Source of the DNA: a virus
Taxonomy: Duplodnaviria; Heunggongvirae; Uroviricota; Caudoviricetes
DNA: 18,208 bases
IMG/VR virus record: IMGVR_UViG_2879754190_000001
Strand: one strand, 5' to 3'
Part shown: piece after piece, positions 1,271 through 6,115 of the stretch
Numbering within the stretch: the first letter of the stretch is position 1
Layout of the letters: each line of letters begins with the position of its first letter
Notes under the pieces: model-generated
What the model was told of the DNA's origin: nothing
The model's database searches: none
What the model saw: only the letters and a program-made list of their open reading frames with translations
Translations under genes and position numbers: made by a program

Positions 1271-1326
1271 GGGCAAATCCAGTATAAGCCATTATCAAAC
1301 CCACCCGTAGATAGGCTTTGTAATGG

Positions 1327-1637
1327 CTACTTCTTCAGAAATGATTCGATGAATTCACGTCGAGGATGACGATAGTTCAGAATATCTTCTGGCATCCTCA
1401 TAAAGCGGTTGTTGCCGTCTTTGGCAGTAACAAAACAGCTGTGAACTCCGCAGACATCCGTTTTGATCGTGTCGCTATACTCAAAAAGCAACTGAGCCAT
1501 CTTCTCTTGCCATTCTGGAGGCATAGCCTCCATGAATACTCGCGGCATCACGCAGAACGACGCATGCGTAAGACCAAACCACAGTTGCAGGTCTTTACGA
1601 TATTCTTCATCCATCGTCTTTACCTTTGTTGCAATGA
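1327..1637 (-). pseudogene. C-terminal fragment (about 103 codons) of an unidentified gene, N-terminally truncated by the IS911 insertion
   Basis: Minus-strand ORF 1327-1710 whose first 24 codons are IS911 terminal sequence; the remainder (IIATKVKTMDEEYRKDLQLWFGLTHASF...MPEDILNYRHPRREFIESFLKK) has coding-like composition. I do not recognise the family. Confidence 0.3.
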
Positions 1638-1709
1638 TGAAGTGGCACACTGAATTTGGCCACCTGAACAGAGGTGATATGCTCACCTCAGAACAACACA
1701 GGTGCTCCA

Positions 1710-1904
1710 ATGAAAAAAAGAAATTTTAGCGCAGAGTTTAAACGCGAATCCGCTCAACTGGTTGTTGACCAGAAATACACGGTGGCAGATGCCGCCAAAG
1801 CTATGGATGTTGGCCTTTCCACAATGACAAGATGGGGCAAACAACTGCGTGATGAGCGTCAGGGCAAAACACCAAAAGCCTCCCCATTACCCGGAACAAA
1901 TTGA
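1710..1904 (+). pseudogene. IS911 orfA (OrfA/InsN-like), frameshifted by 1-nt deletions; slippery heptamer reduced from A6G to A5G at 1959-1964
   Basis: [59 protein letters not shown] then premature stop; the remaining OrfA sequence [21 protein letters not shown] is readable in the +1 frame from 1900. Confidence 0.8.
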
Positions 1905-2004
1905 AATCCGTGAGCTCAGGAAAAAGCTACAACGCATTGAAATGGAGAATGAAATATTAAAAAGGCTACCGCGCTCTTGATGTCAGACTCCTGAACAGTT
2001 CTCG

Positions 2005-2394
2005 ATAATCGGGAAACTCAGAGCGCATTATCCTGTGGTCACACTCTGCCATGTGTTCGGGGTTCATCGCAGCAGCTACAGATACTGGAAAAACCGTCCT
2101 GAAAACCAGACGGCAGACGGGCTGTATTACGCAGTCAGGTACTTGAGCTACATGGCATCAGCCACGGTTCGGCCGGAGCAAGAAGCATCGCCACAATGGC
2201 AACCCGGAGAGGCTACCAGATGGGACGCTGGCTTGCTGGCAGGCTCATGAAAGAGCTGGGGCTGGTCAGCTGTCAGCAGCCGACTCACCGGTATAAACGT
2301 GGTGGTCATGAACATGTTGCTATCCCTAACTACCTTGAAAGGCAGTTCGCCGTGACCGAACCAAATCAGGTGTGGTGCGGTGATGTGACCTATA
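2005..2394 (+). pseudogene. IS911 orfB, 5' portion (exon 1 relative to the intron), containing one further frameshift near 2115-2119
   Basis: [33 protein letters not shown] (frame 1) then ...[66 protein letters not shown] (frame 0), ending exactly at the intron 5' junction. Confidence 0.75.
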
Positions 2395-3062
2395 GTGTGC
2401 CCGGAGTTCAGGGCGGGCATGGATGCTTAAATGAACCGCGAGTCTGTCTGGAATATTGAACCGGTAACTCACGATGAGAAACCCAACAATCCCACCGGGT
2501 GTGACGGTGGAGAACCTGAGCGGCAGTGACCTGCGGCATGCCCGCAGGGTGATGTAACCCGCTGACAACGGGGATTGAGGCGAGATCACTAAGCCGAGAT
2601 GATCCTCAAGGTTAAGTACTGAAAGGCTGAAGAACATGAACCCGTTAATCCGCCTCTGTGGGTTGAAAACGTCACCACGGCCTACGTGATCTGACAGGCC
2701 GTGCAGGAGGAACTGGCAGTGATACGTAAGCACTGCCGGTCGAAGGTGTTTTGACATGTATGCGAAACACCGGGGCAGCAGCGTCTATCACACTTGCGTT
2801 GCTGACTTCTGCCAACTTGCGGCAAGCAAGGATAAAGAGTGCGACGGGCAGCCTCCTCAGTATGCCTGAGTCCGGCAGGTAAACCGGGAAGGTCAGCGAC
2901 GGATGTTAAGGGGCATGGCTCCGATGACGCGCTGGCTGGCGGAGCTTCCGTAGTAGTCCGCGATGGGGAAAGCCCATTACATGGCGAAGGGAAGCAGTTT
3001 GAATGTGTTTGCGACGTGAATTAACTGACCTAACGAGGTGAAGACCTTTGATAATCAGCGAA

Positions 3063-4570
3063 ATGCAACGCAAGCTTGCCACATGGGCAGCCACCGATCC
3101 GTCCCTACGGATTCAACGGCTGCTGCGTCTGATAACACAACCAGAATGGCTGGCTGAAGCGGCGCGGATCACGCTTTCATCAAAGGGGGCCCATACCCCC
3201 GGCGTTGATGGCGTGAACAAAACAATGCTACAGGCCAGACTGGCTGTTGAGCTGCAAATCCTCAGGGATGAATTACTCTCAGGCCACTACCAGCCCTTGC
3301 CCGCCAGACGGGTTTACATCCCTAAAAGCAACGGCAAACTGCGACCACTGGGTATCCCCGCGTTGCGGGATCGTATTGTTCAGCGGGCCATGCTGATGGC
3401 GATGGAGCCGATATGGGAGAGTGATTTTCATACGCTCTCATATGGCTTCCGGCCTGAGCGCAGTGTCCACCACGCGATCCGCACGGTGAAATTACAGCTC
3501 ACAGACTGTGGTGAAACCCGGGGACGCTGGGTGATTGAAGGCGACCTGTCCAGTTACTTCGACACCGTACATCATCGACTGCTGATGAAGGCTGTACGCC
3601 GCAGGATCAGTGACGCACGTTTCATGACTCTGCTGTGGAAAACCATCAAGGCGGGACATATCGATGTCGGTCTCTTTCGGGCGGCCAGTGAAGGTGTGCC
3701 ACAGGGCGGTGTTATATCGCCGCTATTATCGAACATCATGCTGAATGAGTTCGATCAATACCTGCATGAGCGCTACCTGAGCGGGAAAGCCAGAAAAGAT
3801 CGGTGGTACTGGAATAACAGTATCCAACGGGGCCGAAGTACGGCGGTCAGAGAAACTGGCAGTGGAAACCCGCGGTGGCGTACTGCCGCTATGCCGATGA
3901 TTTTGTCCTCATCGTCAAAGGCACCAAAGCACAGGCGGAAGCCATCAGGGAGGAGTGTCGGGGTGTGCTCGAAGGCAGTCTGAAACTCAGGCTGAACATG
4001 GATAAGACTAAAATCACCCATGTTAATGACGGCTTTATCTTTCTGGGGCACAGGATCATTCGCAAACGCAGTCGTTATGGCGAGATGCGAGTGGTCTCAA
4101 CGATCCCGCAGGAGAAAGCCAGAAACTTCGCCGCATCGCTGACAGCACTGTTATCAGGCAACTACAGTGAAAGCAAAGTCGATATGGCTGAACAACTCAA
4201 CCGAAAACTGAAAGGCTGGGCCATGTTCTATCAGTTCGTTGATTTTAAGGCCAAAGTCTTCAGTTATATCGACCGTGTCGTGTTCTGGAAGCTGGCTCAC
4301 TGGCTGGCCCGCAAATACCGTACAGGTATCGCTTCCCTGATGAGGTGGTGGTGTAAATCACCGAAACCGGGTCAGAGCAAAACGTGGGTTTTATTTGGTA
4401 AAACCAATCACGGCAAGCTCAGCGGCGAAATACTGTACCGGTTGGTGGGGCAAGGCAAGAAGCTGTTCCGCTGGCGGCTACCCGAAGGTAATCCCTATCT
4501 GAGGACGGAGACCAGAACACGTATACATCGCGCTTTACAGAAGTGGCAATGGCGTTCGCCAGGCATTTAA
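3063..4570 (+). pseudogene. Group II intron-encoded reverse transcriptase/maturase, split by a frameshift near 3850-3860; no HNH endonuclease motif seen
   Basis: RT motifs GVDGV, RRVYIPKSNGKLRPLGIPALRDRIVQ, SYGFRPERS, GDLSSYFDTV and GVPQGGVISPLLSNIMLNEFD in one frame; YADDFVL, LNMDKTKITHV, GFIFLGHRI and the maturase-like C-terminus in the -1 frame. Confidence 0.8.
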
Positions 4571-4575
4571 ATGGA

Positions 4576-4609
4576 GAGCCGGATGCGCTGAAAGGTGCAC
4601 GTCCGGTTC
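4576..4609 (+). other. Group II intron catalytic domain V hairpin (part of the ribozyme RNA)
   Basis: GAGCCGGATGCGCT-GAAA-GGTGCACGTCCGGTTC: 34 nt, AGC catalytic triad near the base, GAAA tetraloop, close to the domain V consensus; sits about 50 nt from the intron 3' end. Confidence 0.75.
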
Positions 4610-4659
4610 GGGGAGGAGAGCAGGGAAATAGTCCGACTACGCCCTGCCTCTTACTCTAC

Positions 4660-5138
4660 TCTGGACGGGTAAGCGCTGGGCGTACCTCGCCGTTGTTCTC
4701 GACCTGTTCGCAAGAAAACCAGTGGGCTGGGCCATGTCGTTCTCGCCGGACAGCAGGCTCACCATGAAAGCGCTGGAAATGGCATGGGAAACCCGTGGTA
4801 AGCCCGGCGGGGTGATGTTCCACAGCGATCAGGGCAGTCATTATACGAGCAGGCAGTTCCGGCAGTTATTGTGGCGATACCAGATCAGACAGAGTATGAG
4901 CCGGCGCGGAAACTGCTGGGATAACAGCCCAATGGAACGCTTCTTCAGGAGTCTGAAGAACGAATGGATGCCGGTGGTGGGTTACGTAAGCTTCAGCGAG
5001 GCAGCTCACGCCATAACGGACTATATCGTTGGATATTACAGTGCACTAAGACCGCACGAATATAACGGTGGGTTACCCCCAAACGAATCGGAAAATCGAT
5101 ACTGGAAAAACTCTAACTCGGTGGCCAGTTTTTGTTGA
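4660..5138 (+). pseudogene. IS911 orfB, 3' portion (exon 2 relative to the intron), internally intact
   Basis: (I)[102 protein letters not shown]...NSVASFC, matching the IS911 OrfB C-terminus. Confidence 0.8.
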
Positions 5139-5146
5139 CCACTTCA

Positions 5147-6115
5147 CCTTTCTTTCCGAACCTTGTTGATCACCTTCTGGTTAAGCATCACACGGCTGAT
5201 GGCGTTGAAGATGGCATTTCAATCTGCTACTTCAAGCCATACTCGCAAGGCCGTGCTCGCTGGCAGGGTGACACAATCCACGGCGTGTGGTTTGACGAAG
5301 AGCCACCATACAGCATTTATGGCGAAGGTCTTACCCGTACCAACAAATACGGGCAATTCTCAATTCTGACGTTTACCCCGCTGATGGGGATGTCTGACGT
5401 TGTTACCAAGTTCCTGAAGAACCCCAGCAAGTCGCAGAAAGTGGTCAACATGACCATCTATGACGCTGAGCACTATACCGACGAGCAGAAAGAGCAAATC
5501 ATCGCATCATATCCCGAGCATGAGAGAGAGGCGCGTGCTCGCGGTATTCCTACGATGGGTAGTGGTCGAATCTTCCAGATACCGGAAGAGACGATTAAGT
5601 GTCAGCCGTTCGAGTGTCCTGATCACTTCTACGTAATTGGCGGGATGGATTTCGGATGGGATCACCCACAGGCGCAAGTTCAGCTTTGGTGGGATAAGGA
5701 GGCAGACACAATCTACGTTTCACGCGTGTGGAAGGCGAAAGAAAAAACAGCCGTTCAGGCGTGGGGAGCCGTTAAATCATGGGCGCATAAAGTGCCAACC
5801 GCATGGCCTCATGATGGAAACCAGCACGAGAAGGGCGGCGGTGAGCAGCTCAAAGGGCAGTATGCAGACGCTGGATTTATGATGTTGCAGGAGCATGCGA
5901 CATGGCCTGATGGCGGTAACGCTGTTGAGCCAGGCATCACTGAATTGCGCGACATGATGCTCGATGGTCGCTTCAAAGTATTCAATACCTGTGAGCCATT
6001 CTTTGAGGAGTTCCGCCTCTATCACCGTGATGAAAACGGGAAAATCGTCAAGCTTAACGACGACGTGCTATCCGCCGTTCGCTATGCATACATGATGCGC
6101 CGCTTCGCAAAATGA
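5147..6115 (+). pseudogene. P22-like terminase large subunit (gene 2 equivalent), C-terminal about 322 codons only; the N-terminal ATPase region is missing, replaced by IS911
   Basis: Open frame begins exactly at the IS911 right end; the terminase assignment rests mainly on its position immediately upstream of the portal gene (gene order 2-1-8-5), with VIGGMDFGWDHP consistent with a nuclease-type acidic motif. P22 gp2 is about 499 aa. Confidence 0.75.

Follow-up and report, generated by a model that had tools for sequence, protein, structure and literature searches.

A Shigella flexneri IS911 without target-site duplication: probably two insertions in a P22-like prophage remnant and loss of the DNA between them

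How an insertion sequence (IS) comes to separate two oppositely oriented pieces of phage DNA without a target-site duplication is the question raised by the locus described here, an 18,208-nucleotide stretch filed as the viral record IMGVR_UViG_2879754190_000001 and referred to below as the window. The window has 100% identity to Shigella flexneri CP037996.1 (locus L013), and is in all likelihood part of a P22-like prophage remnant of this species that is being dismantled by IS3-family elements. Within it, a copy of IS911 is joined on the left, at ...GCAATGA/TGAAGTGGCACAC (slashes mark junctions throughout), to a fragment carrying a phage gene that we call X, and on the right, at ...GACCACTTCA/CCTTTCTT, to a 5'-truncated terminase large subunit gene (terL, the truncated form being terL'). 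The left inverted repeat (IRL, TGAAGTGGCACACTGAATTTGGCCA) begins at 1638, not 1637, and the right inverted repeat (IRR, TGGCCAGTTTTTGTTGACCACTTCA) finishes at 5146; the element starts with TG and ends with CA, and its 8-bp tips are perfectly complementary. The trinucleotides next to the two ends, TGA and CCT, do not match, and the missing 3-bp duplication points to rearrangement rather than to a different kind of element. A preliminary description made from the sequence alone had placed IS911 at a rearrangement junction without target-site duplication; both statements stand, as the junctions it quoted are exact and the mismatch of TGA with CCT marks an IS-associated loss of DNA. The flanks are contiguous in no E. 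coli complete genome or phage examined, neither window junction occurs in 5,426 complete E. coli genomes, and a simple insertion with a mutated duplication was rejected because no phage has the two flanks side by side.

The answer comes from the same locus in about 20 other S. flexneri assemblies, retrieved through the portal protein and gene X and compared junction by junction, base by base. These assemblies include AE014073, CP000266 and CP001383, which we take to be strains 2457T, 8401 and 2002017, respectively. The locus is a structural hot spot, with at least six architectures (A–F) among the approximately 20 copies. In the 8401 type (A; L007, L009, L011), IS2 is followed by X, a 5.2 kb block, IS911 in plus orientation, GCCACTTCA and terL'; the block carries the genes for Rz, lysozyme, holin and others, all on the minus strand. 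In the 2457T type (B; L008, L012, L025), IS2 and X are followed by TCT/IS911(+)/TCT, the first 2.95 kb of this block, a second copy in minus orientation and terL'. Architecture C (L006, L010, L014, L017, L020, L022, L023) reads IS2-X-TCT/IS911(+)/CCT-terL', and L018 has this form with an intact group II intron. Architecture D (L005, L016) is like C with IS911(-), and E, the window itself, is like C with the intron and with 18 extra bases between catcgtct and IRL. Architecture F (L021, CP007037.1) is like D with a deletion that begins exactly at the IS tip and extends to window position 12720, removing terL', portal, scaffold, coat, gp4 and gp10 and joining IS911(-) to a point 17 bp ahead of the tail-needle gene gp26. 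As a separate observation, the GCCACTTCA of the 8401 types (at about 8950–8959) is a 9-bp inverted IRL tip lying between the IRR of IS911(+) and terL'.

The two ends of the window's IS911 can be traced separately in these copies. The X-side IS911 of B entered by simple insertion, 3 bp upstream of X, and has TCT on both sides as a perfect duplication; neither A nor E. coli prophages nor the P22-like phage HF4s are interrupted at this site. Joining the left junction of this copy to the old terL right junction gives the junction of C: the left junction of C reads catcgtct/TGAAGTGGCAC and that of the window gcaatga/TGAAGTGGCAC, the right junction of the X-side copy in B is CCACTTCA/tctttacc, and 8401 has CCACTTCA/gccacttca/cctttc. 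The alleles agree, the C and window copies carrying G200/A729 as does the X-side copy, and the D copy T200/G729 as does the terL-side copy. On the right, the breakpoint between IS911 and terL' falls on the same base in all terL'-bearing copies (A–E), only L021 differing, with IS911 found there in either orientation. Two clades differ by 164 single-nucleotide polymorphism (SNP) columns in the 12.6 kb that follow IS911 on its right and share this breakpoint, so the truncation of terL is old and not the cause of the window's left junction. Across the same 12.6 kb the B, C, D and E strains show 0 SNPs, indicating that their rearrangements are recent. The window's lineage has lost a 3–5 kb block and a second IS911. 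In all strains the X-lysis block runs opposite to the head genes; its native contiguity was confirmed in E. coli, part of A's block being contiguous in two E. coli genomes, with IS911 there interrupting a Rha-family regulator gene.

We infer from these architectures the order of events and the mode of deletion, and consider a four-step history, with two insertions and a later deletion of what lay between, to be the probable one. An old IS911 insertion at terL codon 153/154, common to the species, would have been followed by a rearrangement joining the left side of this IS911 to an inverted late-gene block (X, Rz, lysozyme, holin and others), with loss of terS and the first 153 terL codons; these older events may have been an inversion or fusion with one end at the terL IS911, and then an IS2-associated loss of terS and the 5' part of terL. 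In a second step a 2457T-like clade would have gained another IS911 in the spacer between X and Rz by simple insertion, and in a third the DNA between the two IS911 copies would have been deleted together with one of them. The survivor would then owe its left flank to one insertion and its right flank to the other, which would explain the lack of a 3-bp duplication and the opposed directions of the flanks. Finally, a group II intron would have homed into orfB of the surviving IS911 in some strains, including that of the window.

Several points weigh against this history. The approximately 20 assemblies examined are a small sample out of thousands. No strain with two direct IS911 copies was found among those inspected; unlike the textbook case of direct-repeat recombination, the only two-copy architecture seen (B, three loci in this small sample) has inverted copies, between which homologous recombination would invert the spacer and not delete it. 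Rooting by SNPs gave 0 informative sites among the B–E strains, so that the order of events is unrooted. Lastly, the window retains 16 native phage bases at its left junction, which is therefore not derivable from C.

As to how the intervening DNA was lost, C and D each amount to the loss of one copy and the spacer, with end-points inside the shared 8-bp tips (TGAAGTGG/CCACTTCA), suggesting a transposase-mediated reaction or a short-homology deletion. Three routes are possible, namely a direct-copy intermediate, which was not observed, a short-homology deletion between the tips, or a transposase reaction between the ends. That transposase-driven, tip-precise reactions between IS911 ends have taken place in this natural genome is a bolder proposal, which we regard as doubtful. 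It would fit the loss of one copy and the spacer from the inverted pair both ways (B to C and B to D), an insertion of IS911 into one end of a copy already in place, of which the 9-bp IRL piece in 8401 would be the remnant, and repeated hits on the same 20-bp spacer, which lies next to an IRR-like TTTGTTG box. IS911 tends to insert next to its own ends, and inverted repeat (IR)-targeted insertion of IS911 was reportedly described by Loot and colleagues in EMBO J in 2002. The locus possibly resembles such targeting in the either-way orientation at the terL' breakpoint, the 9-bp tip in 8401 and the end-points at tips. 'Inside-end' and IS-adjacent deletions are also known from Tn10/IS10, which the locus may resemble in that an inverted pair loses one IS together with the spacer and the other IS is left at a precise tip junction; unlike IS10, a cut-and-paste element, IS911 transposes by copy-out/paste-in.

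The 18 extra bases, TTACCTTTGTTGCAATGA, are peculiar to the window's assembly. The first 16 correspond to what native phage DNA has after TCT, and the last two, GA (1636–1637), match nothing; all other junction-bearing copies lack the 18 bases, and in them IRL directly follows catcgtct. The window's left junction was not found in an exact scan of GTDB species representatives, a result that for a junction unique to one assembly is uninformative on other strains. Derivations of the 18-bp junction from B or C through inversion, copy recombination or an aberrant circle junction were tried, and none gives GCAAT-GA-IRL. Either this lineage received another IS911 in the same 20-bp spacer and then underwent a deletion of the same type, or the junction is an artefact. 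Had it arisen in assembly or polishing, the true locus would be that of L018 (C with intron), with no separate insertion, and although we consider this unlikely it deserves serious attention: the 18 bp apart, window and L018 are distinguished by 1-nt insertions or deletions (indels) and four substitutions only (three in IS2, one upstream of the window), indels in homopolymer or short simple-repeat runs of repeated elements, with a single one in unique DNA, are the pattern of an unpolished long-read assembly, and the junction is known from a single assembly. Random error, however, cannot generate 16 of 18 bases that are exactly native, an artefact would require reads from a paralogous X-Rz region, of which none is seen in S. 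flexneri, and consensus errors elsewhere in the window are of 1–2 nt, not 18.

The 1-nt indels themselves lie at 393, 749, 787, 1885, 1958, 1989 and 2101, and further at 2873, 2885, 2909, 3852, 4515, 4562 and 4619 (all within window 1–5146), as well as at 6108, mostly in homopolymer or short simple-repeat runs of IS2, IS911 and the intron. No mismatches separate the window from sister strains in unique prophage DNA, where the change from A5 to A4 at 6108 is the sole 1-nt indel. The indels are probably uncorrected long-read errors in the repeats of CP037996.1, which makes the frameshifts in orfA, orfB and the intron protein, and perhaps the 3' end of terL', doubtful.

A distinctly improbable alternative is that the single terL' IS911 deleted the DNA to its left, in a one-ended, transposase-mediated adjacent deletion ending in the X-Rz spacer, with no second insertion involved. 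The deletion in L021 is IS911-adjacent and starts exactly at the IS tip, and the reciprocal of the window junction (CCACTTCA, then aaaagccccgcg within 0–4 nt) is in no strain seen, both as this alternative would have it. The surviving IS911, however, has the X-side SNP alleles and not the old terL-side ones, sister strains show that a second insertion took place in the same 20-bp spacer, and the GA dinucleotide is as unexplained by an adjacent deletion as otherwise. The reconstruction in the preliminary description, in which a single IS911-mediated event, be it deletion or recombination, took away the N-terminus of TerL together with terS and all prophage DNA farther upstream and introduced an unrelated gene, is very improbable indeed: it has on its side the missing duplication, a locus that in every strain lacks terS and the 5' part of terL, and the failure to find an IS-truncated terL 5' half in the protein database, but the terL' breakpoint predates the clade split, 3–5 kb of late-region phage DNA still adjoins in the 8401 and 2457T types, X is the usual neighbour of terS in phages, and the left junction has an insertion history of its own, seen as the TCT duplication in 2457T. 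IS-mediated rearrangement as such survives from that description; the specific reconstruction does not.

The preliminary description had advised looking for a second IS911 whose flanks carry the complementary halves or a matching 3-bp duplication; a copy with a matching TCT duplication is indeed present beside X in 2457T, but no terL 5' half was recovered. The latter would read aagtcacct/TGAAGTGG, or its reverse complement. Neither terS nor the 5' part of terL gave a blastn match within 10 kb of the locus in any S. flexneri strain fetched, and no IS-truncated protein corresponding to the 5' half was found in the protein database with TerL residues 1–153 as query, a search that returned only frameshifted full-length genes. 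One match on a 4.6-Mb contig turned out to belong to a different, IS21-interrupted prophage.

On the right flank, homology to terL starts at 5147, where codon 154 (of 499) begins, and not at about codon 177 as had been proposed; in phage Dewey, where terL occupies 467..1966, the match to the window begins at 926. Codons 1–153 are missing, including Walker A (GNQLGKS), and the Terminase_6N ATPase domain is therefore incomplete. Its removal had been claimed outright, but positions 68–214 of 215 of the Pfam model are kept, together with a VWFDEE motif (presumably Walker B) and the whole nuclease domain (Terminase_6C positions 1–154 of 155). The A5-to-A4 change at 6108 shifts the terL' frame, and the open reading frame (ORF) stops at 6115.

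On the left flank, gene X (minus strand, 1327..1614) encodes a 95-residue protein of unknown function assigned to phrog_3527. The earlier reading of this gene as a C-terminal part is defensible, in that its product aligns only to positions 139–230 of 233 of phrog_3527, the last 40%, and the native context gives longer in-frame X ORFs (114 residues in HF4s, 172 in 8401), but RefSeq annotates the 95-residue product as a complete protein (WP_000343116.1). Similarly, the two flanks had been called unrelated and oppositely oriented. They are opposed in the window, where X is inverted relative to terL', but related all the same: both E. coli EC9682 and phage HF4s have X between Rz and the terminase genes, and in phages it is co-oriented with terL. 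The window starts 46 bp inside IS2, of which the full copy is 3769..5095 of L013. Copies annotated 'IS3-like element IS2 family transposase' share 99.2% identity with this element. IS2, too, lies at a junction: its 5-bp flanks do not match (GTGTA versus GTATA), and its left neighbour is a type VI secretion remnant and not the phage DNA that follows X in phages, so the 354-bp X fragment is orphaned between two IS3-family elements. The X-Rz spacer (1620–1635) also contains TTTGTTG, a heptamer of the inner IS911 IRR (5122–5146, CAGTTTTTGTTGACC), perhaps by coincidence, perhaps because IS911 prefers such a target.

The 3.5-kb element itself is 1244 bp of IS911 and a 2265-bp group II intron, of which the preliminary description makes no mention. 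The 757-bp 5' part (1638–2394) shows 98.0–98.4% identity to RefSeq copies annotated 'IS3-like element IS911 family transposase', IS911 encodes HTH_Tnp_1 and rve domains, and the exons equal other S. flexneri copies except for 1-nt indels. The presumed orfA/orfB -1 frameshift site, expected to be A6G, reads A5G at 1957–1965, and orfA carries further 1-nt deletions relative to L006; both are probably sequencing errors. Beyond this, orfB is split by the intron.

The intron starts with 5' GTGTG at 2395 and ends with CTAC 3' at 4659, in keeping with the GUGYG and AY boundaries of group II introns, and the Rfam model RF00029 matches at 4574–4659 over its full length (positions 1–77 of 77; 64.9 bits against a gathering score of 40). 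The encoded protein (3063..4570) has RVT_1 and GIIM domains, typical of a reverse transcriptase/maturase; it is interrupted by the indels at 3852, 4515 and 4562, and intact (502 residues) at the same site in L018, and also in L015. The IS911 exon junction is uninterrupted in L006, and among the strains inspected only L013 and L018 have the intron at the prophage locus. An 'ltrA' intron of 2270 bp that occurs in plasmids of S. flexneri and E. coli shares 99.7% identity with the window's copy. Enterobacterial plasmid records with this intron number more than 1,400; on one of these plasmids, the S. flexneri virulence plasmid (L015), it occupies a different IS3-family orfB. Intron E.c.I4 homes into IS629, IS911, ISEc16 and ISEc31 (Leclercq and Cordaux 2012, PMC3522654). 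The window intron, like E.c.I4 (PMC3522654), is inserted in sense orientation at one fixed position in IS911 orfB and, going by the published description, is probably of the E.c.I4 type; unlike intact copies, it has a broken reading frame, probably from sequencing errors.

Table 1. Layout of the window from IS2 to the portal gene (window positions)
Feature	Positions	Strand	Remarks
IS2	1..1281	+	99.2% identity to annotated IS2; HTH_Tnp_1 and rve domains
Orphan phage fragment with gene X	1282..1635	-	354 bp, 100% identity to E. coli prophages
18 bases, TTACCTTTGTTGCAATGA	1620..1637	.	in the window's assembly only
IS911, whole span	1638..5146	+	3509 bp including group II intron
IS911 5' part: IRL, orfA, start of orfB	1638..2394	+	five 1-nt homopolymer deletions
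Group II intron in IS911 orfB	2395..4659	+	Rfam RF00029, RVT_1, GIIM
IS911 3' part: remaining orfB and IRR	4660..5146	+	identical to L006
5'-truncated terL (terL'), codons 154–499	5147..6186	+	phage Dewey comparison, Pfam domains
P22-type portal gene	6187..8352	+	first intact gene of the prophage remnant

Downstream of the portal gene (Table 1) follow scaffold, coat and other P22-like virion genes. One CAGAGC repeat unit is missing at window position 10761, and the tail-needle gene (gp26 homologue, 12737–13534) has 265 codons compared with 282 in other strains, with an apparent in-frame loss near 13492–13508. Directly after the gene 16 homologue lies a further IS3-family element (17828–18208; IRL TGAACCGCCCCGGGAATCC), whose E. 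coli annotation reads 'IS3 family transposase', with an AL1L pseudoknot, and which we take to be IS629-like in appearance. IS elements thus bound the prophage remnant on both sides, and there is no tailspike end within the window.

The kind of event described here is known, as ordinary IS-driven prophage decay in Shigella: IS2, IS911 and an IS629-like element bound and break the remnant. As with other hybrid IS copies that lack a target-site duplication, the non-matching flanks mark lost DNA, and close strains differ by IS-bounded deletions. For CP037996.1, the apparent IS2, IS911 and intron pseudogenes should not be taken at face value. The locus offers a worked example of an IS without target duplication that is resolved through strain comparison, and a single prophage remnant present in at least six IS911-bounded forms is a possible typing marker. 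It may also be a natural system in which to ask whether IS911 ends promote deletion between inverted copies. Should tip-precise reactions between ends prove to be at work, the locus would hold an in vivo footprint of OrfAB IR-targeting, a site-specific activity known from plasmid assays, and would represent a distinct route of IS-driven genome reduction.

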